From a virus: 64,000 nucleotides of DNA. The notes under the pieces are model-generated. The model saw nothing but the letters and a program-made list of their open reading frames with translations. It was not told the DNA's origin and made no database searches. The translations under genes were made by a program, and so were the position numbers. Every line of letters starts with the position of its first letter. Position 1 is the stretch's first letter. Shown here piece after piece: positions 5,822 to 25,963 of this stretch. Where the stretch lies: the IMG/VR virus record IMGVR_UViG_3300050821_018642, positions 5,133 through 69,132 of that record; one strand, written 5' to 3'.

Positions 5822-6649
5822 ATGAGCTCGCTAAGTTGGCGTCCGCCGCAGTGGTCCAACGGTCCGGCGATGGTTTCCATCACCGTTCCCAGCCCTCCCA
5901 ATTCCAACAGCACGCAATCGCTACAGCCCGACCCCACGGTGCCGGGCGGCTACGTGCTGCAACAACAAGCCACCGGACCTACCACGTACGTGTTTGATGC
6001 GATACTGGACCTGGAGCATGAGCAGCGTTTGGAAAAGACGCACCACCCAGTACAGACCGGAGCGGACCTCAGCAGCCACGCCTACCTGATGCCGGCACGC
6101 GTCACGATGTACATCGGCATGTCGGACGCCATGGACGCCTATTCCAGCGGCAGCGACCCGACGCAGCCTCCGTACATCACGCCGTTCACTGGAAATCCTA
6201 GCAAGAGCGTGTCCGCGTACCAACAGATGATATCGCTACAGTCCGCCCGTGTGCCGCTGACTGTTACCACCAGGTTGCGCACCTACACCAACATGATCGT
6301 GACGTCCGTCGGACCGCGCGAGGATTACAAGACCATAACCGGGCTGCGCATGCGTGTGGAGTTCGAGCAGATATTCACCGCCAGCATAGCATCGGTGCCT
6401 AACAGCGCGCGCAACAACGATACGGCCAGCACCGGACTGGGAGCCGTGAACGCCCAGACGCCCGATCCAACCACCGTAGGCCAGTTCAACGTCAACAACG
6501 CGGCCGACAGTGCCGCCGCAAACGCGGTGCCGTTGAGTAGCCTGTTGGGCTGGGTCAGTACCAATCCTTCTGGCGTGGATGTGCCCGGAGCTGGCGATTA
6601 CAGCAGTAGCAATATCAACAATCTTCAACAATTACCATCGCCACTCTAA
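5822..6649 (+). CDS. baseplate-associated tail protein (hypothetical)
   Basis: ATG 3 nt after TMP stop; position between TMP and hub. Confidence 0.35.
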   Translation: MSSLSWRPPQWSNGPAMVSITVPSPPNSNSTQSLQPDPTVPGGYVLQQQATGPTTYVFDAILDLEHEQRLEKTHHPVQTGADLSSHAYLMPARVTMYIGMSDAMDAYSSGSDPTQPPYITPFTGNPSKSVSAYQQMISLQSARVPLTVTTRLRTYTNMIVTSVGPREDYKTITGLRMRVEFEQIFTASIASVPNSARNNDTASTGLGAVNAQTPDPTTVGQFNVNNAADSAAANAVPLSSLLGWVSTNPSGVDVPGAGDYSSSNINNLQQLPSPL

Positions 6650-6660
6650 AGGCGGCTTAC

Positions 6661-7026
6661 GTGGATCAAACGATACCGCTTACGACGGCTCCGAATCAAT
6701 CGTTCTCAGTGCAGTTGAGCGTCAACAGCAGTCCGCTTACATTGCAGATTACGCTCGGCTACTCTGAAATGGCCGGTTACTGGCAGATGTCCATCAGCGA
6801 CGTGAACGGCAACCTGTTGGTGGCCAGCGTGCCCTTGATAACGGGCTGGTATCCGGCGGCAAACATACTCGGTCAGTACGAATACCTGCAAATCGGCAGC
6901 GCCTATCTGTTGAACACCGGCAATTCCAATACCGACTATCCCGGTCCCAACAACCTGGATCAGTTCTCGTTGCTTTGGGGAGACAACAGCACGTACGTAA
7001 CGCCGACGCACGCGGTGGCCTTGTGA
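6661..7026 (+). CDS. hypothetical small baseplate/tail protein
   Basis: GTG start; 121 aa; in the baseplate block. Confidence 0.3.
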   Translation: MDQTIPLTTAPNQSFSVQLSVNSSPLTLQITLGYSEMAGYWQMSISDVNGNLLVASVPLITGWYPAANILGQYEYLQIGSAYLLNTGNSNTDYPGPNNLDQFSLLWGDNSTYVTPTHAVAL

Positions 7027-8084
7027 GCTCGACTACCAGTAGTATGCCTCTTTGGGGGCAGGCTTGGGAATTGACAGTTACGTACGCCACCGAATCTGGC
7101 GATCCAGACGTACAGACCATAGGATCTAGCGATTGGGAACCGGAGTCGCTACGCATTACGTTCGACGTGTTGCAGGCTATGAACACGGACCCGTTTTGGT
7201 ACGCCGATATCAGCATCTACAATATGAACGACCAGGCCGTCCAAAACACGCTTCTTAACGCCACGTGGGCCACGCTCAAGGCCGGTTTCCAGGTAGGCTC
7301 CAATCTTTACACAACCATCTGGGACGGTCCGGTGTTTCAGTCGTTGTTCACGCGTGAGAACGTGGTGGATCAAAAGGTTACGCTGCACTGCGTGGCGAAT
7401 CCATTGATCATGAGCAGCATAGTCAACTTCAACATCGGACCGGCTTCGCAGGCCCAGCTGGCGGCGAGGTTGGCTAGCGAGGTATCGCTTCCGCCGTTGA
7501 CGCCAGGACAAGGAACCATGAGCCAGCTGGCGTACGATCGAATGTCCGCCAAGCAATATCCGCGCGGTCGCACCGTATACGGCAAAGTCGGCAGGTACAT
7601 CGCGCAATTGGCGGACGACAACTTCATGCAGTCTTGGCGCGACGGCCAGCAGGTGTACGTCAGCGAAGTAAGCAAGAGCGATACCACGCCCGATCTAATT
7701 TACAGCCCACCAATTCCGCCCGGTTACACGGCCCAGCAGCTGGGATTGCCTAACAACACCACCACCAGCATCATCGGTACGCCGCGTCAAATCCAGCAAG
7801 GCGTGATATTCACGGTGCTGCTGGATCCAAGACTGGTAGTCAAGCTGCCTCCGTTGGTGGTGCAGTTGACGCGCACTCAGGTGGCCCTGCTGCAGCGCAC
7901 GCCCAGTATCAACGACTCGCTGCCTACGGTGTTGGACGCCAACTTGAAGTTCTTCGTGGCGCAGGTGCGCCACACGGGCGATACGCGCGGCAATGATTGG
8001 CAAACGGAGATAACCGGCTACAGCACCACTTACGCCGACAATTTGTTGAACGGCATCTTCGCGCCGAATTCCTTGGGAGGATGA
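7023..8084 (+). CDS. baseplate hub-like protein (gp27/gpD-like candidate)
   Basis: GTGA start/stop overlap at 7023-7026; about 354 aa immediately upstream of the spike gene. Confidence 0.35.
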   Translation: MSSTTSSMPLWGQAWELTVTYATESGDPDVQTIGSSDWEPESLRITFDVLQAMNTDPFWYADISIYNMNDQAVQNTLLNATWATLKAGFQVGSNLYTTIWDGPVFQSLFTRENVVDQKVTLHCVANPLIMSSIVNFNIGPASQAQLAARLASEVSLPPLTPGQGTMSQLAYDRMSAKQYPRGRTVYGKVGRYIAQLADDNFMQSWRDGQQVYVSEVSKSDTTPDLIYSPPIPPGYTAQQLGLPNNTTTSIIGTPRQIQQGVIFTVLLDPRLVVKLPPLVVQLTRTQVALLQRTPSINDSLPTVLDANLKFFVAQVRHTGDTRGNDWQTEITGYSTTYADNLLNGIFAPNSLGG

Positions 8085-8085
8085 A

Positions 8086-8772
8086 ATGTCCACCACGTCC
8101 ACGGCGCAGGCCCAACTTACGGCGTCGCAGGTAAACAGATCAGAATCGGCGCAATGGCGAGACATCATCAGGCGCGCGCTGGCCGACACGCGCGTATCCA
8201 TTCCGGCCTATCTAGCCGAGGACATGGACGCCGCCACGCAGACCGTCACGGTTCAAATAGCGATACAGGAGAAGTCGCGCACGCTCACCGGTCCGCAGTG
8301 GACCAGTATCAAGCCCATCTACTACGTGCCAATACTGGTGCCGCGCGGAGGCGGATCCAGCATCACTTTGCCGTTGAAGCAAGGCGACGAAGGGCTACTG
8401 ATATTTTGCGATTGCTGCTTCGATATTTGGTGGCAGAACGGCAGCGGTGGCGGACCGGTTCAGCAGATAGGAAATCACAGCCATGAGGAGGGCGATTGCG
8501 GGTTCTTCCCCGGCATGTGGAGCCAAAAGAACCTGCTTTCCAACTACTCCACCGATTCGTTGCAAGTGCGCATGGACGATGGATCGGCCATTGTGGACGT
8601 ATCCTCTGGCTCCGTGAAGGTGCAGAACAACGGAGGCACGCCGCTGGCGTTGATGAACGACACGTTCTACCAATGGTACGTGGCGCACATACAGCCATTC
8701 TTGGTGTCGCTAGGCTATAGCGGTCCGCCTGTACCGGCAGGCTCTGAAACAACGATCTTGAAAGGTCAGTAG
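8086..8772 (+). CDS. baseplate central spike protein (gp138 N-terminal / gpV-like)
   Basis: Motifs IPAYL...VTVQIAIQE...IYYVPILVP..GG...LKQGDEGLLIFCD match the spike N-terminal OB-domain family (from memory). Confidence 0.5.
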   Translation: MSTTSTAQAQLTASQVNRSESAQWRDIIRRALADTRVSIPAYLAEDMDAATQTVTVQIAIQEKSRTLTGPQWTSIKPIYYVPILVPRGGGSSITLPLKQGDEGLLIFCDCCFDIWWQNGSGGGPVQQIGNHSHEEGDCGFFPGMWSQKNLLSNYSTDSLQVRMDDGSAIVDVSSGSVKVQNNGGTPLALMNDTFYQWYVAHIQPFLVSLGYSGPPVPAGSETTILKGQ

Positions 8773-9171: not shown

Positions 9172-10590
9172 ATGTCGACGCCTCCGTACGCACCGCCATC
9201 GATCGGACCGGCTGGGCTTACGATAAACACGTACCCATCCATATTAGCAGACAATCTTCAAGCCTACCTGAACATTTTCGGATTGAACCAGTACGTAGCC
9301 CCGGATTCCGCCATTTACCAATTGCTGTCCATCATCAGTTTGAAACAGTCCGATGCAAACCTTGGTCTGCAACTCGCTTACAACCAAGCCAGTCCGCAGA
9401 CCGCCGTCGGAGCCGGTCTGGATCGTATTGTGAAGATGAATGGGTTGGCGCGGTCGTCGTTCACATACTCCACGGCCATACTGACCATAACGGGTTCGGC
9501 GACTGCGGTGTTGGTGAACTGCTTCGCGCAGGACCAAAACGGAAATCTCTGGTCCATTCCAAGTCCGCTGCCTATAACTGGAGGTGCCGTGGACGTGGTG
9601 GCCGTATGCACCACACCGGGCAACGTCACGGCCGAGCCGAACAGCATCAACATCAAAGCGACTCCTTCATTGGGTTGGACCAGCGTCAACAACGCGGCTC
9701 CGGCCACCTCCGGAGATCCGGTCGAAACCGACTCAGAGCTACGCGCGCGCCAAGCCATAAGCGTGGCACTGCCTTCGCGCACCACGCTGCAGACTACCAT
9801 CGCCTCCGTGCTGGCAGTGGCCGGAGTGACGCGCGTGGCACCGGGTTACCCGACGCCTGGAGGTCCGGGCACATCCATCGAAAACCCGACGGGAGCTACA
9901 GACTCGTGGGGCAATCCTCCGCACTCCATCTCCATGGTCGTAGAAGGCGGTACCGATGCCGCTGTGGCTCAGGCCATCTATGGGGCTCGCGGGATAGGCT
10001 GCTATACCAACGGCACCACCGCCGTGGTGGTCGTGGATCCGAACAGCGGCTACTCCATGACTATCAGCTTCTTCAGGCCCACGTACATACCAATAGCCGT
10101 ATTGGTGGCCGTAACTCCGTTGGCCGGGTTCACATCGTCCACACTCGCCGCCATCCAGGCCGGGATAGTGAACTACCTGAACAGTCTATCCATCGGGGAG
10201 ACGGTGGTGTACTCTGAATTGTACGGAGCGGCGTTGACGGCACGTCCGAATCCAGACCAACCCATATTCTCCATCGCTAGCATCAGATCCGCCGCATTGT
10301 CGGCGCAGACTACCGGCAATCTGGTGCTTGGCAGCCCCAACGTCGTGGTGGCCAGCGTGGTCGGACTGGCGAACGGAATGCTGGTGGTGGATGAGACCAA
10401 TCCCGCAGCGCTTCCCGACGGCGTCATGATCATCAACATCAGCGGTAGCACCGTTACGCTGTCAGCCAACGCCTTCCAGAGCCAGACCGGAGATTCGCTT
10501 TCGTTCTTCGCGCTGGGCACCTCGGACATAGCCATGCCAAACTACTACGACGCCGTGGTGGGTCTGGACAGCAACGTACAGGTGGCCTGA
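9172..10590 (+). CDS. baseplate protein J-like
   Basis: 472 aa following the gpW-like gene; ETDSELRARQ motif typical of the baseplate-J family. Confidence 0.6.
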   Translation: MSTPPYAPPSIGPAGLTINTYPSILADNLQAYLNIFGLNQYVAPDSAIYQLLSIISLKQSDANLGLQLAYNQASPQTAVGAGLDRIVKMNGLARSSFTYSTAILTITGSATAVLVNCFAQDQNGNLWSIPSPLPITGGAVDVVAVCTTPGNVTAEPNSINIKATPSLGWTSVNNAAPATSGDPVETDSELRARQAISVALPSRTTLQTTIASVLAVAGVTRVAPGYPTPGGPGTSIENPTGATDSWGNPPHSISMVVEGGTDAAVAQAIYGARGIGCYTNGTTAVVVVDPNSGYSMTISFFRPTYIPIAVLVAVTPLAGFTSSTLAAIQAGIVNYLNSLSIGETVVYSELYGAALTARPNPDQPIFSIASIRSAALSAQTTGNLVLGSPNVVVASVVGLANGMLVVDETNPAALPDGVMIINISGSTVTLSANAFQSQTGDSLSFFALGTSDIAMPNYYDAVVGLDSNVQVA

Positions 10591-11805: not shown

Positions 11806-12212
11806 TGGCTGGCGAGACTACCACTCCCAATATAGGATTGCAGATAGCCGGTTTCGACCAGCCAAATTGGCAGGTTCCCACCAATTACAACTGGAACTTG
11901 CTGGACCTTATTTTCGGCGGCGAGATACAGGTGCCTGCCCTGGACGTCAACGTGCTGACGGTCGCCAGCTTCGTCATCGCCAATTTCGTCGCCAGCGCGG
12001 CGGCGTCGTTCTTCGCCGAGACTCCCGGCGGCACCGTACCAGGAACCGTGTATACGTGCACGTACATACCGGGCGTGGTGCTGGGCGTGTACAAGAACGG
12101 AATCATTCAAAAACCGGGCGTCGGTTACGACTACACGATTTCAGGCAATCAAATCACGTTCTCAACCGCGACCTCTCTCGGAGACAAAATCTATGTCACG
12201 TACTTTCATTAG
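11805..12212 (+). CDS. small fibre protein with YKNG motif
   Basis: Shares GTVPGTVYT...VYKNGIIQKPGVGYDYTISGNQITF with ORF 405..995. Confidence 0.35.
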   Translation: MAGETTTPNIGLQIAGFDQPNWQVPTNYNWNLLDLIFGGEIQVPALDVNVLTVASFVIANFVASAAASFFAETPGGTVPGTVYTCTYIPGVVLGVYKNGIIQKPGVGYDYTISGNQITFSTATSLGDKIYVTYFH

Positions 12213-15200
12213 GCTGATGGCGTCGCTGGCTGTGTTGGTTGGTTGCTGCGGCGCGCAGACTCTCGTCAATCCGGCTACGCAGATCAACTGGCCTTTGATA
12301 ACCGGAGCCGGCACTCCGACGGCGTTGGGATACGGCTGCACCAGCGTCAACTACGGACAGCCGTTCCAGAACACCTCCGTTACGCCCAATACATACTATA
12401 CTTGCGGCTCCGATGGTTGGCAGATACGAGGCGGCAGCAGCGGCGGCGGCATCACGATCGGCTCCACGTTCGTTCCCGGCGGCGGAACGATCACCAATGC
12501 GCCAGGATTCAATTCAGCCACGGCCACGGCCTTGGCGGTCAATCCGGCCACCTGCCCCAGCGGCAGCTACCAATACGGTTCGATGGCCAACGGCAACGCC
12601 TTGTGCAACGCCCTGCCGACGCAGCCCGGTACGCAGTACGTGGGTCCGCAGGCCATCAGCGGGTGCGGCGTGCAATACGTGAGCGGCCTTACCTACACGG
12701 TCGGCGCTTGCACGTACATCATCAACAACACCACGTACAACTCACCGCTTACCAACATCACGCTTCCGGCCTCGGATCCTTCCAATCCGGAAATAGACGT
12801 GTTGTATCTGGACGCCACGCAAACGGTGCAGTACATACAAGGCACTCCGGCAGCCACGCCGCAGCAGCCGACGATCAATCCCGGCACGCAGCTGGCGCTG
12901 ACGTTCGTATTGGTGCCGGCAGGCAGTTCGACTCCAGGCGGTACTACCACCACCAATATCTACCTGAACAACACTGGATGGACCTACTCCGTGGGCACGA
13001 ACGTCAACGGCGCGTCCACCAACAATCCGTACAGCGGCACCTACACCGTGGAATTCGGCTACGGCGGTGCGGCCACCACCACTTCCGATATCATACTTAC
13101 GGATCCTTCTTCTGGCACCGTCAACCTATCCAACTACAACAATCTGATATTTTACGTGCGCAATAAGGCGGCTTGGTCGTCCAGCTGCTCCGTAGTGCTG
13201 CAGTGGTACAACTCTGGGTTCGGCACGGTGGGTCCTGGCATCGTACTGAACAACGGCGCGTTCGGCTTCAACGCATTGTCAAACTTCACTACGTACCAGC
13301 AGGTTTCCATACCCACGACCGCTTTCAGTACCGGCAACACCGCCGTAGCTACGCTCGGTTACTTCGTGACTGGCTCTGGCTGCAGCATGACCGGCTTCTA
13401 TCTGGACGCCGTATCGCTGCAGGGCGGAGTCGGCAACAATCCGCCCGCATCGACGGTGGTCAACTTCAAAGGTACGTGGAGCGCAACGGCCTCTTACAAT
13501 CCGAACGACTTGGTGGTGAGCGGCGGAATAGGCTACGTGGCACTGGTCGGCAATACGGACGTAGCCGTAACCACCACCGCGACATGGGCCTCGCTGGGGG
13601 CCACCGGCGGAGGTGGTAATACCACTTCTACGGGCGGTACTAACAACGTCGTGCCGAAATTCAACGGAGCCAACTCCATCATTAATTCGCTGTACGCGGA
13701 CGACGGCACGAACGGCTCGTATTCCGGCACTGGCGGCTTCACCTCGTCAGCATTCAAGACCAACGGCACAGTCAACGGATTCCTCAACCTAAAGGCCACC
13801 GGTACTCCCGCAACCGCTCCAGGCACTGGCACGTTCCAATTCACCACGCCAAGTTCGATAGCCACTCCGTACGCGCTAGAGGTTCCCGCCACTCCTCCTC
13901 CAGACAGCACGCACATCTATCTGACGTGCACGTTCGCCAATCCCAGCGTTTGTAGTTGGGGCGCTGGCGGCGGTTCGGTAACGCTCACTACGGTCGGTAG
14001 CGGCGGACCGGCTACGTACAGCGGCGGCACGCTGAATATTCCTGTGTACGCCGGATTGATACAGCCGTATCCCGTGGTCGTCAACTCTGGCGACAGCGAC
14101 GGTGTGTACTCACCCACCGCACCGCAGACCTCGCCTTCCTCCGCCAGCGGATGCAACGGCACGGTCTGCAACATCAACGCCGTCAACACGCACGTCGCTG
14201 GCGATTGGGTAACGTTCAACAACGAGGGAGGGACTTGGGGATGCTTGGCCTGGGCTCCGGCCCAGGTACTGTCCACCGGACTGACTGGATCGTCGTTCGA
14301 AGTGTCTGAAGCGCAAGCGATGATACCCACGTACGCCGGATGCACCGGAGTCGTAAGCGGGCTGGGCGTGGGTTCGCTGATACAGGATTCCAACGATCTG
14401 TACGGTCAGCTGGTTGTCCACTATCCGACGTTGTCGGCGCAGGGTACTGCCGTTCCGACGCTGTATCCGTACAGCATCCCGGGCAACACGGCCACGGCCG
14501 ACGCCGCCAACTTCACGGCGCGTTACGGAGCTGTGGCGCCGTCATCTCCGCACGGCGCGTTGTTCATAAACAACGACGGAGCCAACGACTTCAACAATTG
14601 CGAAACCGTGTCCGCCATCGAAACCGCGCTACAGTCCGTTTGGACGCAAGCGCACGCCGCCAATTACGACGTCCTGGATTCCACGCCGATCGGTGGATTC
14701 ACGGCCTTCAATGCTGGCATTGAGTGCAGCCAGAACACCACGATGAATTACGACGCGGTCATGCAGTGGCTTTACGCGCAGAAATGCGTGGACGGCAATA
14801 GCACCGCTTGTTGGGATTACTTGGCCGATTCGGGCGGTACCATCAAGGATTTCAGCAATACCAATATGATCTCGAGCGGCCACCCCACTCCCGCCGCGAA
14901 CACCATTTACGCGGCGGTCATCGACCGCGCCTTGTCCAGCAAGATGGTCACCTACAACTACAATCCTGGTGCTGGCGCGAACGTGCTGCACGGCACGCAG
15001 ATAGTGCAGGTGCCTCCGAACAACGTCACAACCATGGAGACTTGGGCGTTCACCGGCGGCAATCCGTCCTTGAGCATCTGCCAGTACGGCACGGCCATGT
15101 GGATGTCCTACGTCAATACGGGTATAGTAACTTCATACTGCCCGAATTGGCTTACGTTGAACTACAATGGAAGCCAAGGATTCGTCAACGTCGATTCGGG

Positions 15201-16953
15201 ATTGACGCTCGGCTTCGGAGACGCTCAAAACTGCCTGGTGTGCTTCAGCCTGGATCCCAGCGCCAACGGTCCCTACGGCCTCAACGACACGGTCGATCTC
15301 GGGGCCAACGTATATCCCTCGTCGACCGGTCAACTGCACGACACCACGGCGTGGCTGAGCAACGGTGGTTTGAAGTTCCACAATTGGACGGCCGATCCGT
15401 CGGTCCTGACCAACGGCCAAGTTTGGTACAACAGCACCTCGGGGCAGCTGAAGGGCTACTTCGCTGGGACTACGATTTGCATTTCCGGAACTGGTTGCAG
15501 TTCCGGCGCGGCGTTTCCGAGCACTAACGGCCTGGTGTTCAACACCAGCACCACCACTTCGCGCAACGGAACCGCGTCGGACCTAGCCTCGCTGGCGTAC
15601 GTGGCCGACAGCGGGACCACTAACGCTTACGCTGCGGTGCTGGCCTACCCGATATCATCGTACACGGCCGGACTCACGGTCACTATCAATCCTGGATCCA
15701 CCAACACTTCGACCACGCCCACGTTGGCCGTCAGCGGATTGAGCGCCGTCACCATCGTGAAGCCGGTCAGCGGATCCTTGGTTGCCTTGGCCGCCAGCGA
15801 CGTCGTGAGCGGCACGTTGGCCACGTTCAAGTACGACGGCACGCACTTCCAATTGCAGAATGCGCAAACCAGCGCCGCAGCTGGTGTAGCTAGCGTCAAC
15901 GCCACCTCACCATTGACCGCCAACGGCGTTTCCGGATCGGCGCAAACGGGAACGGTGGTCGTAGCCTGCCCCACGTGCTCCGTCGGCAGCGGCACCTCCG
16001 TCGGCCTGCCGGGCGCTGCGTCCCTCGGCTCCGTTACGTTCAACGGCAACGTCGGATTGCTTTGCGCAGATACGTCGGGCAGCGGCACGGCGCAAAGCTG
16101 CACCACCACGCCGAGCATCACGCCTGCGATCGGCACGTGCTTCACTTACACCACCACCACGGCCAACAGCGGCACCGGCCTGACTCTTAATATGGATTCA
16201 TTCGGCGCGAAGAACGTGGCCGTCGCTAGCAGTTCTGGCTGGACAACCACACTAGTAGCGAGCACAAGCATTCCGGCCAACAAACCGATGGTGATGTGCT
16301 ACGACGGTACAAATCTGAATGCGTCAGGCACTGGCTATGCTCCAAGCAGCGGTGGGAGTTATCAATATTCTTCTCTTCCACAACCTGTATACGCAAACTT
16401 CACTCAAGTCAACTTCCAATCCGGTACCACTGTAGGCACGGCTGGCGGAAACATATTTATGACCATTCCTTTTCAGTCGTCTCTGAATTGGCAGCTTCTA
16501 AAGCAAACGACAAATCCGGGGTCAGCACCTTGGAGCGTTCAAGCATTCATCGCGTCCACTCCCAACAGCGCTGCATCTTCTACCACTGCCGGTCTGTACA
16601 TTTCAGATGGTACGAAGCTTGCAGGTATGGAATTGCTTAATGGTAGTACTTTGCGCTTGGAACACATGAACAGCGTCACAAGCGACAGTGGAACAGTAAC
16701 CAGTGTCAGTTTGCCAGCGTTATATAGCCAAGGCCAATACTATCGCATTTGCGATAGTGGCACTACGATCTATTACGAGACTAGTATGGACGGAGCGAAC
16801 TGGTTCACGCTTCCATCGTTTAGCGAAACTGTAGGTTCGTTCATCACACCTACGCAAGTTCTCGTCGGAGGCGTGTCTGTAACTGCTGGTGGACTTGTTA
16901 CCTACGTCAATGTGAAGGGCTGGTCAATCACAAATTCGGCGGTATGTCCATAG
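12193..16953 (+). CDS. large tail fibre/adhesin (1586 aa) with signal-peptide-like N-terminus
   Basis: RBS GGAGA 8 nt before ATG; N-terminus MSRTFIRLMASLAVLVGCCGAQT; Gly/Thr/Ser/Asn-rich beta-rich sequence; codon usage is coherent across the whole length. Confidence 0.55.
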   Translation: MSRTFIRLMASLAVLVGCCGAQTLVNPATQINWPLITGAGTPTALGYGCTSVNYGQPFQNTSVTPNTYYTCGSDGWQIRGGSSGGGITIGSTFVPGGGTITNAPGFNSATATALAVNPATCPSGSYQYGSMANGNALCNALPTQPGTQYVGPQAISGCGVQYVSGLTYTVGACTYIINNTTYNSPLTNITLPASDPSNPEIDVLYLDATQTVQYIQGTPAATPQQPTINPGTQLALTFVLVPAGSSTPGGTTTTNIYLNNTGWTYSVGTNVNGASTNNPYSGTYTVEFGYGGAATTTSDIILTDPSSGTVNLSNYNNLIFYVRNKAAWSSSCSVVLQWYNSGFGTVGPGIVLNNGAFGFNALSNFTTYQQVSIPTTAFSTGNTAVATLGYFVTGSGCSMTGFYLDAVSLQGGVGNNPPASTVVNFKGTWSATASYNPNDLVVSGGIGYVALVGNTDVAVTTTATWASLGATGGGGNTTSTGGTNNVVPKFNGANSIINSLYADDGTNGSYSGTGGFTSSAFKTNGTVNGFLNLKATGTPATAPGTGTFQFTTPSSIATPYALEVPATPPPDSTHIYLTCTFANPSVCSWGAGGGSVTLTTVGSGGPATYSGGTLNIPVYAGLIQPYPVVVNSGDSDGVYSPTAPQTSPSSASGCNGTVCNINAVNTHVAGDWVTFNNEGGTWGCLAWAPAQVLSTGLTGSSFEVSEAQAMIPTYAGCTGVVSGLGVGSLIQDSNDLYGQLVVHYPTLSAQGTAVPTLYPYSIPGNTATADAANFTARYGAVAPSSPHGALFINNDGANDFNNCETVSAIETALQSVWTQAHAANYDVLDSTPIGGFTAFNAGIECSQNTTMNYDAVMQWLYAQKCVDGNSTACWDYLADSGGTIKDFSNTNMISSGHPTPAANTIYAAVIDRALSSKMVTYNYNPGAGANVLHGTQIVQVPPNNVTTMETWAFTGGNPSLSICQYGTAMWMSYVNTGIVTSYCPNWLTLNYNGSQGFVNVDSGLTLGFGDAQNCLVCFSLDPSANGPYGLNDTVDLGANVYPSSTGQLHDTTAWLSNGGLKFHNWTADPSVLTNGQVWYNSTSGQLKGYFAGTTICISGTGCSSGAAFPSTNGLVFNTSTTTSRNGTASDLASLAYVADSGTTNAYAAVLAYPISSYTAGLTVTINPGSTNTSTTPTLAVSGLSAVTIVKPVSGSLVALAASDVVSGTLATFKYDGTHFQLQNAQTSAAAGVASVNATSPLTANGVSGSAQTGTVVVACPTCSVGSGTSVGLPGAASLGSVTFNGNVGLLCADTSGSGTAQSCTTTPSITPAIGTCFTYTTTTANSGTGLTLNMDSFGAKNVAVASSSGWTTTLVASTSIPANKPMVMCYDGTNLNASGTGYAPSSGGSYQYSSLPQPVYANFTQVNFQSGTTVGTAGGNIFMTIPFQSSLNWQLLKQTTNPGSAPWSVQAFIASTPNSAASSTTAGLYISDGTKLAGMELLNGSTLRLEHMNSVTSDSGTVTSVSLPALYSQGQYYRICDSGTTIYYETSMDGANWFTLPSFSETVGSFITPTQVLVGGVSVTAGGLVTYVNVKGWSITNSAVCP

Positions 16954-17013: not shown

Positions 17014-20000
17014 TTGCGCAAATTCCTGACGGTTCTATTCCTGTTCTGCGTCTTCGGTATGGCGAGGGCGCAGGGAACCTACACCGCCGCGTCGTGCAAC
17101 ACGGCGGACGTGAACGCGGTCATCAACGGACCGACGCACAACGCCGTCAACGGTGACACGATCGTCATCCCGGCGGGCAACTGCACGTGGACCTCTGGCA
17201 TAGCCATTTCTGGCGTCGGAATTTCCATACTTGGTTCTGGCACTCCGAACACCGGTCCTTCGACGTTCGGAGCCGGAACCAGTACCACCGTCATATCTTC
17301 TAACATCTCGGGCGGAGCGTCGGCGCTTTTCAACGTATCTGGACTAAGCTACGGCCAATTCACGCGCATATCGCTCATCAACTTCGCCAGCGAAACCAAT
17401 ACCAACCCCACCACGGGCGTGGGCGCGCTGATATTCAGCGGCACTTGCACCACGAGCGGCTGCGCCAATCTTCGTCTAGACAACCTTACTTTCGGCCCTA
17501 CTTGGAACGGAGCCTATCTTCCCGCCGGATCGATCGTGTTCACATTCGGAATGACTGGCGTGGCGGATCACAACTCCATCAATGGCCCGGACGGTCAGGC
17601 TCCCTACTTCATCAATGCCAACCAGGGTTCTTGGCAGGGAGTCGGCCAATACGGCGACAATTCATGGTACGCGCCAGATACGATGGGCACGGCCCAGGCC
17701 ATGTACTTCGAGAACAACGTATTCGATTCTGGAACCGCGTCCGAAGGAGACTTCGGAGAAACGGTGGCCGGAGGCGGAAGGTATGTTTGTCGCTTCAACA
17801 AATTCAGCGACGTGGCCACCGAAGCCGTTTCTTGCGGCGGTCACGGTACGTCGTCTGGCGGAAGACCGCGCGGAATGCGCCAAATGGAGGCGTACGGAAA
17901 TACGATGGTCTGCACCAGTTCCGCCGGGTGCGAGGGTCCGCTCAGCTTCAACAGCGGCACCGGCTACGTGTTCGGAAACAACTGGAGCTCCACTGGCTCT
18001 GGGTTCTTCAACGGATACTCGTCCATCAACGCGCAAAGATCGGCCGGCACCGGTTGGCCGATTCCCTGGAACGACTGCGACGGCACCGGACCTTACGATT
18101 TGAATTCTGGCGGCTCGGCCGTGGCCTGCATCGATCAACCGGGCAGAGGTACCGCTACCGTACTATTGTCTGGCTTCACTCCGTCGCCAACCGGGTGGGT
18201 AGGCGAACCTATAGCTCCCATCTACGAGTTCACGGATACGGTTACTGGTGGATTCACCACTCCCATGTTCACCGGCAGTTCCACGTTGGCGGCCAACCGC
18301 GACTTCTACTACGAGGGAACCAACCAGGCAGCGCAGACATCCACGAGCGTCCCGTTCAACGGTTCCACCGGCACCGGACACGGAGCCTTGGCCATGATGC
18401 CGACGACGTGCACTACCGGCGTAGGCTACTTCGCCACGGACCAAGGTTCGTGGAATACCAGCGGCAACGGCTTCGGACAGGGAGTGTTTTACAAGTGCAC
18501 GTCCACGAATACGTGGAACGTGGCGTACACTCCGTACACGTATCCGCACCCGCTCACCGCAGCGGCTTCCAACGTATACACCGCCGCGTCGGCCGCTTAC
18601 ACGGATGTGAACGCCGTAATCAACGGTCCCACGCATGTGGCCGTGAACGGCGATATCATCCAGATACCGTGCAGCGGCAACGTCTACGTAACGTGGACCA
18701 ATACGCTCACCATCTCGGCTAGCATCACGCTGACCGCCTTGGGAGCGTCTCCGAACAGCGGACCGTCCACCGTAGGCGCTGGCACGAACTGTCTGACCAT
18801 CATCGACGACGTTACGAGCGGGTGGATGTTCTACCTGACTCCGACCTACGCCGCCGCCAACAATGTCACCACGCTTCAGAACTTCAACATCGATCCGATA
18901 AGCACCACCACCGCGCTGTATACGCCGATCACGATGGAGGGAACCGGAACTTCCAGCGGTATGCCGCAGGTTCGCATCGACAACATCGTCTTCGGCAAGG
19001 CCACGCCCTGGAGCGGAGCCACCAACAGTTCGAACGCCACCCGCATGCTGAACGTCGACAACGTAGTCGGCGTCGCGGACCACAACACCATCGCACCGGG
19101 CAACAACGTATACTTCTACGAAGGCCAAATGTCGTCCTACCTGGGCGTGGGCCAGCTGGGTGACAATTCCTGGGCGCAACCCGATTCGATGGGCGGAGCC
19201 AACAACTGGTTCACAGAAAACAACGTATTCAACACCACCGGTAACGCTTCTTACAACGATTGCACGGAGGGCGGTCCTTCGGTGTCGGAGAGCGGCGGAT
19301 GTCGTGTGGTAAATCGCTTCAACAACATCGTAACCAGCAACAGCTTTCAGATCACCAGTGTCCATGGCCTGGACACTACGGGGCGCGTGCGGTCGGCCCG
19401 GCACACGGAGACCTACGGCAACACCGAGTCTTGCTCTGGTAATTGCCAAGACCTCGCGACATTCCGCGGAGGCACGGGAATGGTCTGGGGCAACAAAGCC
19501 GTCAACGTCAATCCAGGCGGTTCGTATTGGAATCAAATCTTCGATCTCACCACTTACAGATTGGTGTTCAACTCGAACCCGTGGGGTTACTGCGGCGGAT
19601 TGACCTCGTTGGATCCGTTCGACACCGTGGACAACACCGTTTATTACTCAGGCACGATGAGCGCCAGCAACGGCAGCTTGACGATGACCGATTCCAGCAA
19701 GAGCTTCCCCAACTTGATCCCCTTGGGGATGCCTTACTCGGTGTACGATACCACGCAGGGATTCGTATCGCAGGTGGTGTCGAATACGGCCACCACTATC
19801 ACGGTGATGGGCAACATTCCAGAATCCAGTTGGACCGGGTTCAACAACGGCGACGGCTACCAGATAATACGTGCCACGGTATGCATGGACCAGAGCGGAC
19901 GCGGCCAAGGCAACCTCATCTCCGGTTCCACGCCGACGCCGTCAGCTCCCATCAACGAGGCCCTGGACCCCATCTATGAGTGGAACGATTCGTTCCCCGT

Positions 20001-22845
20001 AGGCACTCTGGCGCAACAAGTGTTGCAAAATCCAAAGCAGACTATCGCCAATCGCGATTACTACACAGACAATTGGAAGGGCGGCGGCAATTCCGCTCCG
20101 GTACTACAAACTAGCAACACGGTGCCCTTCAACGGATCCACCACTTGCAACGCCGGAAGCGGCAATTACTCGTGCGGCGTAGGCGTAGGCACGCTGGCCA
20201 ACATACCGACTTCGTGCACCACGGGCGTGGCCTACTGGGCCATGGACCAGGGCAGTTGGAACCACGGCTGCGGCAACGGCGCACAAGGCGTATTGTACAA
20301 ATGCACGTCCACAAATTCTTGGAACGTGGGTTACACGCCATATACTTGTCCGCATCCGTTGGCCGGAGGCACGCCGCAAGCGTCGGTTCCATCTATCAAT
20401 CCGGCGACTGGCACGTACTCTTCTTCACAGACAGTAACCATGGCCTGTGCATCGCCCAGCCCGACCATCTATTACACGATAAACGGCTCCGTACCAACCA
20501 CTAGCTCCACCGTTTACTCCGGCTCGTTCAACGTCACGTCCACCACCAACGTACAGGCGATTTGCACGGCCTCGGGATACACGCAATCCAATACGGCCCA
20601 ATCCATCATAACGATAGGCACGCCGCAGACGGCCACACCCGTCGTATCGCCGGCAACCGGCACGTATCCGCGCGCGCAGACCGTAACCATTACCGACGCC
20701 ACCGGCGGATCCACCATTTACTACACCACCAACGGGACCACGCCAACCACCGGTTCCACGCAATATACCGGATCGTTCGCGCTGTCAACCACCGCGAACG
20801 TGCAGGCCATAGCCGTAGCTTCTGGCTATTCGCAAAGCGCAGTAGGTAGCTCCAACATCACCATCACGTCCGCGATTACGATCGACGGAGGAGGCACCGC
20901 GCATTGCTTCGCGGTGGGCACAAGCTGCGCGACCGGCACGGCGGTCGCCGGGGACGCCATCTTAGTGGACGCTTCGGATCGCAACGGCACGATTACTAGC
21001 ATCTCAGACGGTACAAATACCTATCATCAACTGAGCTACGTACAGGACGCGGCAAACCCGGCTTGGGGTGGTCAGTGGGTTGCTTGCAACGTCGCAGCTG
21101 GTACATACACTGTCACAGTGAACGGTACTGGTGGCGCATACGAATGGGTCAATGTACACGCCAAGGTGCTAGCGAATACGTTGGCCAATTCCGTTTGTTA
21201 CGACACTGGTCCGGTCACACAAACCAGCGTATCCACCAGTTCCACACCGACGTGTGGTAGTGTCCAGGCACCAACTGGAAATTCAGAATGGGTAGAAGCT
21301 TACCTAGTTCCAGATGGAGCCTTCGCATCATCCACGGCCGGAGCCAATTACACCATTCTGGACGCCGTATTGGGCGGCGTCAACAATTCGGCCATCCCAG
21401 AGTACTGGAATCAGACCACGGCTACCGCAACTAACGGACCGCAGACCATAGCTAGCTCCGTAGATTACTTGAACGTCTGCACCGCCATACTACCCGTCGC
21501 AGCGGTAACACCAACGTGCGCCATTCCGACGCAGCTGGGACCGCCGTACAGCTACTCTGGCAACGGACCAGGACCGGGCGGCGCTTATTACGTTCCGCCC
21601 GCCGTGAGCGTGGGCTTCAACTCCGCCACGCCTGGATGCACGTTGCACGCCACGTTCAACGGTACCACCGCTAGCTGCGCCAGTCCAGTGTACGGCGGTA
21701 CGTCGTCGCTTACCGCCACGACGCCCATAAGCACCATCGCTTGCGGCGCTGGGTTCAATCCTTCCGCCAACAGCGGCGGAGTGTGGGATATAATCAACAC
21801 CGTAGCGGCTACGCCGACCCTGTCGCCTATCACCGGCACTTACGGCTCGGCGCAGACGGTTACGATAAGCGACACCACTCCTTCTTCCACCATCTACTAC
21901 ACGACGAACGGAAACATACCAACCACTTCCAGCGCCGTGTACACAGCGTCACTCACGGTCAGTTCTAACACCGTGGTCAATGCGATAGCCGCTGCGTCCG
22001 GCTATGCGAACTCGGCCGTGGGAAGCGCTACTTACACGATACTCGCTGCCACGCCAGCATTCTCGCCGGCAGGTGGTATGTACGCCACGTCGCAAGTGGT
22101 CACAATTACCACCACGACGCCTTCAGCCACCATCTACTATACCACCAACGGCAGCACGCCTACTACTTCCAGCGCCGTATACACAACACCGTTGACGGTG
22201 AGCTCCAGCCAAACATTACGCGCGATAACGGTGGCCACCAACTACGCCCAGAGCGCAGTCGGCAACGCCACTTACACTATCGGAACTGTAGTGGCTACGC
22301 CGTCCCTGTCGCCAGCTAGTGGATCATACACTTCCGCTCAGACGGTTACGATAACGGACGGCACCATCGGCTCCACCATCTACTACACCACTAACGGCAC
22401 CGTGCCTACGACGGCTAGCACCGTATACACAGCGCCGTTCACTGTAAGCGTAACCAGCACCGTGAACGCCATAGCCACGGCCAGCGGATACGTACAAAGT
22501 GCCGTCGGGAGCGCCACTTACACCATAGCGACTCCGGCCGCCACGCCCACGTTCTCACCAGTGGCGGGCACCTACGGATCTGCGCAGACCGTGACCATAA
22601 GCGATACCACGCCTTCGCCTACCATCCACTACACCACCGACGGCAGCACGCCCACTACCTCCAGTCCGGTTTACAGTACGCCGCTGACCATAGCCTCTAC
22701 AGCCACTGTGAAGGCTATAGCAACCGCCAGCGGATACACGCAAAGCGCAGTAGGAACGGCGCTGTACACCATCAACTCGACGCCAGCGCCGCCGACGTTG
22801 ACTGGTGGTACTACTACCATGGGTGGTTCGGCTAATCATAATTGA
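17014..22845 (+). CDS. giant secreted fibre/depolymerase-like protein (1943 aa) with six chitobiase-C-like repeats
   Basis: RBS AAGGAG 7 nt before TTG start; signal peptide MRKFLTVLFLFCVFGMARA|QG; two paralogous ~500-aa modules followed by six ~80-aa CHB_HEX_C-like repeats (TIYYTTNG...P). Confidence 0.6.
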   Translation: MRKFLTVLFLFCVFGMARAQGTYTAASCNTADVNAVINGPTHNAVNGDTIVIPAGNCTWTSGIAISGVGISILGSGTPNTGPSTFGAGTSTTVISSNISGGASALFNVSGLSYGQFTRISLINFASETNTNPTTGVGALIFSGTCTTSGCANLRLDNLTFGPTWNGAYLPAGSIVFTFGMTGVADHNSINGPDGQAPYFINANQGSWQGVGQYGDNSWYAPDTMGTAQAMYFENNVFDSGTASEGDFGETVAGGGRYVCRFNKFSDVATEAVSCGGHGTSSGGRPRGMRQMEAYGNTMVCTSSAGCEGPLSFNSGTGYVFGNNWSSTGSGFFNGYSSINAQRSAGTGWPIPWNDCDGTGPYDLNSGGSAVACIDQPGRGTATVLLSGFTPSPTGWVGEPIAPIYEFTDTVTGGFTTPMFTGSSTLAANRDFYYEGTNQAAQTSTSVPFNGSTGTGHGALAMMPTTCTTGVGYFATDQGSWNTSGNGFGQGVFYKCTSTNTWNVAYTPYTYPHPLTAAASNVYTAASAAYTDVNAVINGPTHVAVNGDIIQIPCSGNVYVTWTNTLTISASITLTALGASPNSGPSTVGAGTNCLTIIDDVTSGWMFYLTPTYAAANNVTTLQNFNIDPISTTTALYTPITMEGTGTSSGMPQVRIDNIVFGKATPWSGATNSSNATRMLNVDNVVGVADHNTIAPGNNVYFYEGQMSSYLGVGQLGDNSWAQPDSMGGANNWFTENNVFNTTGNASYNDCTEGGPSVSESGGCRVVNRFNNIVTSNSFQITSVHGLDTTGRVRSARHTETYGNTESCSGNCQDLATFRGGTGMVWGNKAVNVNPGGSYWNQIFDLTTYRLVFNSNPWGYCGGLTSLDPFDTVDNTVYYSGTMSASNGSLTMTDSSKSFPNLIPLGMPYSVYDTTQGFVSQVVSNTATTITVMGNIPESSWTGFNNGDGYQIIRATVCMDQSGRGQGNLISGSTPTPSAPINEALDPIYEWNDSFPVGTLAQQVLQNPKQTIANRDYYTDNWKGGGNSAPVLQTSNTVPFNGSTTCNAGSGNYSCGVGVGTLANIPTSCTTGVAYWAMDQGSWNHGCGNGAQGVLYKCTSTNSWNVGYTPYTCPHPLAGGTPQASVPSINPATGTYSSSQTVTMACASPSPTIYYTINGSVPTTSSTVYSGSFNVTSTTNVQAICTASGYTQSNTAQSIITIGTPQTATPVVSPATGTYPRAQTVTITDATGGSTIYYTTNGTTPTTGSTQYTGSFALSTTANVQAIAVASGYSQSAVGSSNITITSAITIDGGGTAHCFAVGTSCATGTAVAGDAILVDASDRNGTITSISDGTNTYHQLSYVQDAANPAWGGQWVACNVAAGTYTVTVNGTGGAYEWVNVHAKVLANTLANSVCYDTGPVTQTSVSTSSTPTCGSVQAPTGNSEWVEAYLVPDGAFASSTAGANYTILDAVLGGVNNSAIPEYWNQTTATATNGPQTIASSVDYLNVCTAILPVAAVTPTCAIPTQLGPPYSYSGNGPGPGGAYYVPPAVSVGFNSATPGCTLHATFNGTTASCASPVYGGTSSLTATTPISTIACGAGFNPSANSGGVWDIINTVAATPTLSPITGTYGSAQTVTISDTTPSSTIYYTTNGNIPTTSSAVYTASLTVSSNTVVNAIAAASGYANSAVGSATYTILAATPAFSPAGGMYATSQVVTITTTTPSATIYYTTNGSTPTTSSAVYTTPLTVSSSQTLRAITVATNYAQSAVGNATYTIGTVVATPSLSPASGSYTSAQTVTITDGTIGSTIYYTTNGTVPTTASTVYTAPFTVSVTSTVNAIATASGYVQSAVGSATYTIATPAATPTFSPVAGTYGSAQTVTISDTTPSPTIHYTTDGSTPTTSSPVYSTPLTIASTATVKAIATASGYTQSAVGTALYTINSTPAPPTLTGGTTTMGGSANHN
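20380..20870 (+). repeat. intragenic tandem repeats 1-2 (chitobiase/hexosaminidase C-terminal-like, ~80 aa each)
   Basis: Units share P(A/T)TG(T/S)Y...QTVT(I/M)....TIYYTTNG..PTT.S..Y...(F/L).(V/L). Confidence 0.55.
21800..22775 (+). repeat. intragenic tandem repeats 3-6 (chitobiase/hexosaminidase C-terminal-like)
   Basis: Four consecutive ~80-aa units, each ending GY.QSAVG.ATYTI. Confidence 0.55.
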
Positions 22846-22861: not shown

Positions 22862-23248
22862 ATGCGAATCATTTGCATTGCGTTGTCGTTCCTCATCGCG
22901 ACCATGGTGTGTCGTTCGCAAAACGCCGTAACGCTCAGTGGAACCGCGCCCGCGTCCTGTAGCGGTCAATCTTGCTCGTTTGTATTCAGTCGTGTGACGT
23001 TAGTTACTGGCTCCGTGGCCTGCCCTGGCAATACCAGTACCACGTACAAGCCACTGAACGCCTCGTCGCCGTCTTGCTCGCCATTGTACCTGGATACTAC
23101 GGCTGCGGGACTTACAACCTGCTACGTAATGCGCGTGATGCAGAATGGCGCGGTCGTAGGCCAACCATCCAACAGTGTCGGACCGTTCGTACTGCCGAAG
23201 GTCGCGGCGGCATCTAGTAAACAAATCGCAAAGGAGACGAAGCAATGA
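22862..23248 (+). CDS. small secreted Cys-rich protein
   Basis: RBS AAGGAG 9 nt before ATG 22862; signal peptide MRIICIALSFLIATMVC; sits between the fibre and holin genes. Confidence 0.4.
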   Translation: MRIICIALSFLIATMVCRSQNAVTLSGTAPASCSGQSCSFVFSRVTLVTGSVACPGNTSTTYKPLNASSPSCSPLYLDTTAAGLTTCYVMRVMQNGAVVGQPSNSVGPFVLPKVAAASSKQIAKETKQ

Positions 23249-25307: not shown

Positions 25308-25565
25308 ATGGTCAATCAATCTTACACACCAGTCAGTGCCGAGCGCTGGGCGGACATCAAGAATGAGTTCGCCCAGCAAGCAGGCGTGACGATTACCACC
25401 GACACAGGCGCTGCCGTCTCACACGGCGTTCACTTCAGTTGGGCCTATGGTGGAGATGCACTAGCTATTACTGTGGACAGTGTACCGTGGGCTTTGAAGA
25501 TGGTAGGGCTGTCGGAACAGGCCGTACTGGACAAATTTAGTACGTGGATCAACGGAGTTCAGTAG
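25308..25565 (+). CDS. hypothetical protein
   Basis: 85-aa ORF inside the lysis cassette. Confidence 0.35.
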   Translation: MVNQSYTPVSAERWADIKNEFAQQAGVTITTDTGAAVSHGVHFSWAYGGDALAITVDSVPWALKMVGLSEQAVLDKFSTWINGVQ

Positions 25566-25963
25566 TGACCATACAGGACCAGGTAATCGGTGCGCTGTGC
25601 TGTTGGCGTGAGAACCGCGGCGGTGGTGTACTTGGCATGCAGTCGGTGATGAATGTTCTGGTTAATCGTGCGACAAAACGATTGACTGATGTATACACTG
25701 AAGCCACACGCCGATTGCAATTTTCATCCATGACCGCAGCGGGCGATCCAAACCTGATTCTCTATCCATCTCCGCAAGATCCGCAAGGTTGGAGCGCGTG
25801 GTTGGAGGCGTTGACCATCGCAGGTGAAGCAGCTGCCGGTAGCCTGGAAGACATCACCGAGGGCGCTACCAGCTACTACGCCACTTCAATGACTACGCCT
25901 CCGTACTGGGCTTCCAGTATGACCAGAACAGTCACTATCGCAAATCAAATATTCTTCAAGTAA
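25565..25963 (+). CDS. SleB/CwlJ-type cell wall hydrolase (endolysin)
   Basis: GTG overlapping the upstream TAG (TAGTG) with GGAG 7 nt upstream; IGALCCWRENRGGGVLGMQSVMNVLVNRA and QFSSMT match the Hydrolase_2 signature. Confidence 0.55.
   Translation: MTIQDQVIGALCCWRENRGGGVLGMQSVMNVLVNRATKRLTDVYTEATRRLQFSSMTAAGDPNLILYPSPQDPQGWSAWLEALTIAGEAAAGSLEDITEGATSYYATSMTTPPYWASSMTRTVTIANQIFFK

Follow-up and report, generated by a model that had tools for sequence, protein, structure and literature searches.

We analyzed an open reading frame (ORF) of 1943 amino acids (aa) in a 64,000-nucleotide stretch of viral DNA (IMG/VR record IMGVR_UViG_3300050821_018642, positions 5,133 to 69,132), which is called the window hereafter and whose own numbering is used throughout. 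The ORF probably encodes a multi-module depolymerase directed against exopolysaccharide, capsule, or O-antigen-type polymers, and it would belong to a three-gene exchangeable cassette of an uncultured E217/Pam3-type myovirus with a probable host in the class Terriglobia. The product is possibly an exopolysaccharide depolymerase of dual specificity. This reading is built on two tandem beta-helix modules, on their cellular homologues in polysaccharide synthesis clusters, and on a cassette that phages exchange with one another.

Architecture of the 1943-aa ORF

From its N terminus, the protein comprises a signal-peptide-like segment, two beta-helix modules, two repeats (R1 and R2), a middle module, a degenerate repeat, and four further repeats (R3 to R6). 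An identical protein (our handle, P0001) is recorded on a JGI contig of 69,132 bp. The features are as follows (i-E, independent E value).

17014..22845, + strand: whole ORF, 1943 aa; TTG start; ribosome-binding site AAGGAG, 7 nt 5' of it
17014..17070, + strand: Sec-type signal-peptide-like N terminus, MRKFLTVLFLFCVFGMARA, predicted cleavage before QG; positive n-region, hydrophobic core, A-x-A site
17071..18618, + strand: beta-helix module copy 1, ~aa 20-535; short subtype without an ~80-aa insertion
18619..20373, + strand: beta-helix module copy 2, ~aa 536-1120; 39-50% identical to copy 1
20386..20616, + strand: CHB_HEX_C_1 repeat R1, aa 1125-1201, i-E 4e-38
20635..20865, + strand: CHB_HEX_C_1 repeat R2, aa 1208-1284, i-E 2e-37
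20875..21597, + strand: middle all-beta module, ~aa 1288-1528; no Pfam match
21598..21774, + strand: degenerate seventh CHB_HEX_C-like repeat, aa 1529-1587, i-E 7e-9
21811..22041, + strand: CHB_HEX_C_1 repeat R3, aa 1600-1676
22051..22281, + strand: CHB_HEX_C_1 repeat R4, aa 1680-1756
22297..22527, + strand: CHB_HEX_C_1 repeat R5, aa 1762-1838
22543..22773, + strand: CHB_HEX_C_1 repeat R6, aa 1844-1920

Two beta-helix modules with an invariant polar residue set

The modules have the core of a right-handed parallel beta-helix (pectin lyase fold), and an AlphaFold2 (AF2) model of the beta-helix module reached a predicted local distance difference test (pLDDT) score of 89. Foldseek comparison of the models with PDB and BFVD returned only weak matches to beta-helix or tailspike proteins, with template modeling (TM) scores of ∼0.2. 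We obtained no profile match between the modules and the known beta-helix enzyme families, namely, glycoside hydrolase family 28 (GH28), polysaccharide lyase families PL1, PL3, PL6, and PL9, Pectate_lyase_3, and Beta_helix. An NCBIfam match to DUF499_antiphage (42.6 bits; cut-off, 1200) was discarded as spurious.

Across 90 sequences, both phage copies included, the residues R114, N117, D149, H150, D177, E195, R228, H244, R251, Y261, and N263 (copy 2 numbering) were invariant, and copy 1 keeps all the invariant columns of our alignment A1. Such a charged and polar set (Asp-His, Asp, Glu, three Arg, His, and Tyr) is typical of an active site. It bears on the alternative that the protein is a noncatalytic adhesin or fiber, whose beta-helices and immunoglobulin (Ig)-like repeats merely bind the host surface. 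No known catalytic motif was matched and Ig-like repeats are, as general knowledge has it, common in adhesins, but the invariance of this set in homologues down to 37% identity, together with the single-module, secreted nature of the cellular homologues and their location in synthesis clusters, makes the alternative improbable in our view.

The family is represented by at least 331 genome loci in GTDB and at least 123 viral loci. In 50,697 GenBank phage records, we found 0 matches to the beta-helix module and one weak match to the CHB_HEX_C repeats (low-complexity filter on). Among the relatives (P and L numbers are our own handles), copy 1 is 76% identical to P0002, from another phage contig, and 75% identical at the protein level and 68% at the DNA level to a 539-aa signal-peptide protein (L046) on a 633-kb contig of an Acidobacteriaceae metagenome-assembled genome (MAG).

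Cellular homologues in polysaccharide synthesis clusters

We then looked at the surroundings of the cellular homologues in 76 loci fetched from species-representative genomes. The closest cellular proteins stand alone, with a single module and a signal peptide. Two of them, P0009 and P0006, with 59 to 62% identity, lie inside Wzx/Wzy-dependent polysaccharide synthesis clusters, where their neighbors encode a Polysacc_synt flippase, a Wzy_C polymerase, GT2 and GT4 glycosyltransferases, an acyltransferase, methyltransferases, and UDP-glucose dehydrogenase. At least two polysaccharide-cluster neighbors were present within 8 kb in 61 of the 76 loci, and the L046 protein, the relative of copy 1, likewise has such neighbors. 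The presence of UDP-glucose dehydrogenase in many clusters suggests polymers that contain uronic acids, so that hydrolase and lyase chemistry would both be possible. Apart from one endolysin-like match, no further gene of this phage was found in the 76 loci, and they are therefore not prophages of it. The Acidiferrales MAG locus L077, which encodes a similar endolysin along with a beta-helix protein of 2187 aa, was considered and is not clearly a prophage.

As judged from sequence, acidobacterial polysaccharide clusters regularly include a member of the family, which has also repeatedly moved into phages. It is a large group without a Pfam match, tied to these clusters and distinct by sequence from the described beta-helix enzyme families.

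Two further features of the relatives were recorded. A tail of the form "..PPTNL[NK]GTV[QN]" is conserved at the C termini of P0003, P0006, P0009, P0021, P0037, P0112, and the L046 protein; it resembles the first strand of a fibronectin type III (Fn3)/Ig domain with nothing after it and may act as a signal for sorting or strand complementation. In the 1943-aa protein, the C terminus reads "PPTLTGGTTT..", which is looser. Relatives with 30 to 35% identity occur on MAG contigs assigned to Micrarchaeota (L031 and L040) and Parcubacteria (L050), without polysaccharide-cluster neighbors, and could reflect horizontal transfer or mis-binning.

The CHB_HEX_C repeats and the middle module

An initial annotation, made from the sequence alone, had reported six repeats of ∼80 aa, two and then four, at 20380 to 22775 and had assigned them to CHB_HEX_C (PF13290). 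Both statements held. We built a hidden Markov model (HMM) from six clean copies and ran it on the protein and on all ORFs of the window; it placed the copies, of ∼77 aa each, at 20386 to 22773 in the same layout and added the degenerate seventh copy, which had not been listed. No second repeat-bearing ORF was found within the window, and 200 shuffles of the protein gave 0 matches. In Pfam, PF13290 (CHB_HEX_C_1) matched the protein in seven stretches (E = 1.7e-108; 355 bits, the curated gathering threshold being 22), overlapped by PF13287 (Fn3_assoc; E = 5e-77). Nothing beyond these two entries was matched in Pfam at E ≤ 0.1, and the GH20 catalytic domain of chitobiases and beta-hexosaminidases was not found at that threshold.

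Protein identity among the six clean copies ranged from 47 to 71%, and the DNA repeat families were roughly 62 to 82% identical. The repeats are old duplications. Neither recent tandem expansion nor misassembly explains them, given these DNA identities and the absence of an array in Tandem Repeats Finder. The G+C content of about 60% given in the initial annotation is approximate, the gene having 58 to 60% and the whole window 55.6%.

The degenerate repeat type also occurs in P0002, P0015, P0017, P0020, and the L146 protein described below. Homologues of the middle module were found in phage-type proteins only (P0042, 57% identical; P0002; P0020; and the viral locus L154, 46% identical), with none in the 76 genome loci. 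Its AF2 model, based on five sequences, had a pLDDT of 46 and was unusable. This phage-restricted module may serve in binding or attachment.

An exchangeable cassette in the tail region

Together with the gene on either side, the 1943-aa ORF forms a variable receptor-binding cassette within the tail/baseplate region. The other features of this part of the window are as follows.

1652-3055, + strand: tail sheath, DUF3383/E217_gp31_N family
4251-5819, + strand: tape-measure protein with lytic transglycosylase
6975-8084, + strand: baseplate hub
9172-10590, + strand: baseplate wedge
12193..16953, + strand: upstream partner gene, 1586 aa, after the baseplate genes, at the tail-fiber position of related myoviruses
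22862..23248, + strand: small downstream ORF, 128 aa, third gene of the cassette
25544-25963: SleB-type endolysin

The + strand also encodes a tube-like protein in the tail region, and the - strand of the window encodes thymidylate synthase, a helicase, and DNA polymerase. The tail appears to be of the E217/Pam3 type, judging from the sheath family and from the neighbors of a relative's sheath (Pam3_gp18, PhiTE tube, and E217_gp27). In searches of GenBank phages, the sheath was 25 to 34% identical to those of cultured phages, proteobacterial and others, and the best DNA polymerase match, at 39% identity, was to Xanthomonadales phages. Hundreds of sheath relatives were found at 60 to 74% identity. 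Since all of them lie on contigs of at most 106 kb and no link to a prophage was found, the data suggest a phage group that is abundant, uncultured, and apparently nonintegrating or lytic.

Comparison with three other phages showed that the cassette varies and moves. The IMG/VR contig L146 (105 kb) is collinear with the window, with 50 to 79% identity in the baseplate genes and 62 to 80% in those that follow the cassette. The product of its first cassette gene (5966-8212), 749 aa long, has in common with the 1586-aa protein the first ∼79 aa only; the second gene encodes a 1520-aa protein composed of a signal peptide, a GH10 domain (E = 3e-41), a beta-helix (31% identical), and CHB_HEX_C repeats; and the third, a small ORF, contains a lipobox (LVAGC). 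The first 79 aa of the 1586-aa protein are indeed conserved in both L146 (58%) and L142 (54%), the remainder being replaced, and its C terminus matches phrog_19068. The 128-aa ORF had no match in Pfam, NCBIfam, or PHROG, and in L158 and L160 the beta-helix gene is immediately followed by a weak homologue of it. L093 has a sheath with 45% identity and a comparable set of three genes, which is located upstream of the sheath genes and not beside the baseplate. Promoter and terminator scans around the cassette of the window gave no more than chance.

The third phage, L001 (75-kb contig; 46% G+C), has a weak match to an SU10-type adaptor, and its tetranucleotide usage is unlike that of the window (r = 0.25). 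One of its proteins (952 aa) has a beta-helix module with 76% identity to copy 1, and another (1654 aa) has 90% protein and 82% DNA identity to aa 606 to 1390 of the 1586-aa gene. The matching 2.4-kb stretch spans 13981-16363 in the window and 14917-17302 in L001. The G+C content of L001 is locally raised in this stretch, which suggests a fairly recent transfer of the module into L001. Since both big genes are shared with this unrelated phage, they travel together between unrelated phages, as receptor-recognition modules do.

These contexts also bear on the possibility that the ORF is an auxiliary metabolic gene, whose product would break down plant or soil polysaccharides (for instance, pectin, xylan, or chitin) as a food source for the infected cell. 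Glycoside hydrolase and "polysaccharide-binding" genes of Acidobacteria-linked soil viruses have indeed been interpreted in this way (PMC6172770), relatives of the ORF fuse the beta-helix to GH10 (L146) or GH30 (P0017), and the beta-helix fold is common to polygalacturonases too. Yet the modules matched neither GH28 nor a pectate lyase family, the closest cellular homologues reside in Wzx/Wzy/glycosyltransferase synthesis clusters rather than in catabolic loci, and the tail-region cassette to which the gene belongs is exchanged among phages, a fiber gene moving with it. We therefore consider a metabolic role very improbable.

Several other ORFs of these phages deserve mention. The 749-aa protein of L146 has a weak, sub-threshold Lipase_GDSL_2 match (E = 0.0015), and the 1586-aa protein carries a "NNDGANDFNN" motif at aa ∼800 to 830, where an SGNH/GDSL esterase module is possible; an esterase module in the fiber-position proteins could deacetylate the polysaccharide alongside the depolymerase. 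An ORF of ∼260 to 280 aa follows the cassette in L146 (13542-14384) and L093 (12194-12970) and contains a Cys motif ("EGSCTGQ" and "LSSCTGH", respectively) that, judged by eye, is reminiscent of papain-like peptidases; no counterpart of this ORF was identified in the window. At 61357-63951 on the - strand, the window encodes an 864-aa vault-like protein (Pfam MVP_shoulder, E = 2.5e-21; Vault_3, E = 4e-10). Its aa 487 to 832 align to residues ∼455 to 807 of solved vault proteins of similar length (phmmer, E ∼4e-15). It resembles the eukaryotic major vault protein, and a vault-like gene is unusual in a phage genome.

Signal-peptide-like N termini across the cassette

Signal peptides were called with a simple heuristic of our own (n-region, hydrophobic h-region, and small-x-small site; no dedicated predictor). 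By this heuristic, the N terminus of the 1943-aa ORF is a predicted Sec-type signal peptide. The same kind of N terminus was called in the 1586-aa protein (12193-12261, MSRTFIRLMASLAVLVGCCGAQT) and in the 128-aa ORF (22862-22924, MRIICIALSFLIATMVCRSQN), and these three consecutive cassette genes were the only clear N-terminal matches among the 85 ORFs of the window, three further ORFs passing from an internal Met only and being dubious. Signal-peptide-like starts were also found in the related phages L146 (from 5966, 8216, and 12775) and L093 (from 4739, ∼8260, and ∼9860) and in the unrelated phage L001 (from 6411, 10001, 12859, and 19665). In the first 50 kb of Tunturi 4, one cultured acidobacterial phage, tail proteins are without signal peptides.

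The N terminus of the 1943-aa ORF aligns with the signal peptides of ten cellular homologues and is followed by the same mature start, "(G)TYTAAS..DVNAVINGPTH". The signal peptide was kept in 18 of the 20 viral-contig homologues inspected, and its retention across 25 to 60% divergence suggests that it is selected. The enzyme module begins right after it: we found no N-terminal anchor or adaptor domain common to related phages in the 1943-aa ORF, and the ORF had no PHROG match. The initial annotation had called the product a virion protein. Its position after the baseplate genes agrees with this designation, but the signal-peptide-like start, the lack of an anchor domain, and the lack of a PHROG match do not, and the designation is thus unproven. 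By position, the 1586-aa gene would be the fiber and the 1943-aa ORF an extra.

A different reading of the cassette follows from these N termini, namely, that the ORF and its two neighbors encode Sec-exported nonvirion enzymes, which would cross the inner membrane of the infected cell and, there or after lysis, cut nascent and surrounding exopolysaccharide, thereby keeping it from trapping the progeny. The product would then be a receptor-destroying or "public good" enzyme instead of a tail spike. Such an export would account for the start shared with the cellular homologues without an anchor domain, for the conservation of the signal peptide in divergent viral homologues, for the confinement of clear signal-peptide matches to the three cassette genes (likewise in L146, L093, and L001), for the position of the L093 cassette away from the baseplate, and for the lack of a PHROG structural match. 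Against it, giant genes after baseplate genes are usually tail fibers or spikes, as is generally known, and the signal peptides were called by our heuristic only. Moreover, the 1586-aa gene, at the E217-type single-fiber position (PMC10329688) and with an anchor-like N-terminal 79 aa, has the same kind of N terminus; if that N terminus drove export, the phage would seem to be without fibers. We regard export of nonvirion enzymes as possible but rather doubtful.

The relatives point to Terriglobia

The initial annotation had proposed an Acidobacteria-like host on the strength of the repeats. It is the beta-helix modules, in the N-terminal half on which that annotation had not commented, that support such a host. 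In our scan of GTDB, all 22 matches with at least 44% identity to copy 2 belonged to the Acidobacteriota, class Terriglobia, including Terracidiphilus (60%), Acidobacteriaceae (59% and 56%), Acidiferrales, and Bryobacteraceae, and the P0009 cluster includes a member named Terracidiphilus. By our own labeling, Acidobacteriota account for 61 of the 76 kept loci, and relatives from Verrucomicrobiota, Planctomycetota, Micrarchaeota, and Parcubacteria appeared only at ∼27 to 43% identity. The repeat-bearing C-terminal third gave 3358 matches, of which the named ones were mixed: Terracidiphilus (58%) and Terriglobales (50%) are present, and so are the gammaproteobacteria Solimonas (53 to 54%; S. flava and S. 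marina) and Nevskia (52%) and a Fibrobacterota MAG (45%). By themselves, the repeats do not name a host. The relationships of the beta-helix modules show gene flow with an Acidobacteriota lineage, and a Terriglobia host (Acidobacteriaceae- or Terracidiphilus-like) is the most likely.

Proposed function and points against it

We propose that each cellular protein acts on the polymer made by its own cluster, which it would trim or degrade as WceF does with stewartan. The phage lineage would have taken up two different cellular enzymes and fused them, which would provide activity on two glycan types. Glycan cleavage would then allow the phage to reach the cell surface or the progeny to leave the slime, and the Ig-like CHB_HEX_C repeats could act as spacers or low-affinity glycan binders that add reach and avidity. 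The initial annotation had also suggested that the protein binds or degrades a host surface polysaccharide; we reach the same view from the beta-helix fold and from the homologues in Wzx/Wzy clusters, not from the repeats. For a virion-borne role of the depolymerase, attached to the neighboring fiber or to the baseplate, we see the chances as evenly balanced.

A number of observations weigh against the proposal that the ORF encodes a depolymerase of a Terriglobia myovirus. The beta-helix modules had no match to a CAZy-type Pfam family, PHROG, or PDB chain, and activity and substrate are therefore deduced from fold, conserved residues, and context only. The retained signal peptide and the absent anchor domain speak against a virion role, as the same kind of N terminus on the upstream gene at the tail-fiber position speaks against an export-only role. 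With respect to the host, genes shared with a lineage signify exchange and not infection, and there is no direct host link. We found no tRNA genes in the window, no cultured relative in gene-by-gene searches of GenBank phages (beta-helix, sheath, and DNA polymerase), and no protein of the window with a counterpart in the first 50 kb of Tunturi 4, a cultured Acidobacteriota phage. Tetranucleotide comparison with the 76 loci gave r = 0.45 (standard deviation [sd], 0.06) for Acidobacteriota and 0.39 (sd, 0.08) for Verrucomicrobiota, and the top scores included Planctomycetota and Parcubacteria loci. Since Acidobacteriota were not separated from other phyla, tetranucleotide host prediction, a check named in the initial annotation, was uninformative.

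More tentatively, a clade of soil myoviruses may send the whole cassette through the host Sec system, either as secreted slime degraders or as proteins that join or serve the virion after export, with a depolymerase that arose by fusion of two host self-trimming enzymes; we hold this to be unlikely. Neither Sec-routed secreted slime degraders nor virion assembly after export has, to our knowledge, a precedent among tailed phages. Functional signal peptides would raise the question of where the fibers and depolymerases of such phages act or assemble.

Acidobacteriota are among the most abundant bacteria in soil, and their phages are almost unknown. Five Acidobacteriota phage isolates were published in 2025 (PMC11924767). 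The ORF provides a lead on both the host and the receptor or barrier of an uncultured phage, which would be the polymer of particular Acidobacteriaceae/Terracidiphilus Wzx/Wzy clusters, and it brings to light a large beta-helix family without a Pfam match. It also calls for caution, as carbohydrate-active genes on soil viral contigs are not automatically auxiliary metabolic genes of carbon cycling; the context here points to degradation of the host coat. Acidobacterial slime is known to hinder culturing as well as the extraction of DNA and protein, and the modules are candidate enzymes for dissolving it.

Comparison with known systems

The E. coli colanic acid protein WcaM is related to WceF of Pantoea stewartii. 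WceF (PDB 6TGF) is an exported glycanase with a tailspike-fold beta-helix, encoded in the stewartan cluster, and it cleaves stewartan (PMC7949094). Like the family described here, it has an export signal and a location in a Wzx/Wzy-type cluster, which in our family applies to the cellular homologues, the phage gene being in the tail region. WceF is also a documented case of structural kinship between a bacterial and a phage protein, and it cuts the polymer of its own cluster (PMC7949094). However, WceF has a Tat signal and a P22-like head-binding domain, whereas the present proteins have a Sec-type signal followed at once by the enzyme module. They are found mainly in Acidobacteriota, the transfer having apparently run from host to phage, and no sequence homology between the beta-helix modules and WceF was found. 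The modules nevertheless look like acidobacterial equivalents of cluster-encoded glycanases of the WceF type.

In E217, the single tail fiber is gp46, numbered after gp44 and gp45, and its N-terminal portion sits on the baseplate (PMC10329688). In contrast to tailspike and fiber depolymerases such as Klebsiella KP32gp38, the K1 lyase, Acinetobacter AP22 gp54, and the tailspikes of Salmonella phages Det7 and P22, the 1943-aa ORF has no anchor or adaptor domain and no PHROG match. It also differs from these capsule depolymerases in having a signal-peptide-like start, two tandem beta-helices in one chain where those have one per protein, and seven CHB_HEX_C repeats, a domain nearly absent from the 50,697 GenBank phage records. 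All seven repeats match PF13290, but unlike PF13290 proteins with a GH20 domain, the ORF has none and its repeats sit on another enzyme fold. We know of no established function for the CHB_HEX_C_1 domain.

Auxiliary metabolic genes encoding glycoside hydrolases have been described on uncultured viral contigs from peat and soil, some of them linked to Acidobacteria (PMC6172770). By comparison, the context of the present ORF favors the host's own surface polymer over environmental carbon. What differs from the known cases is thus the combination of a Pfam-less, cluster-tied family, tandem beta-helices, seven CHB_HEX_C repeats, and Sec-type N termini throughout the cassette, and it is the signal-peptide cassette that could represent new biology.

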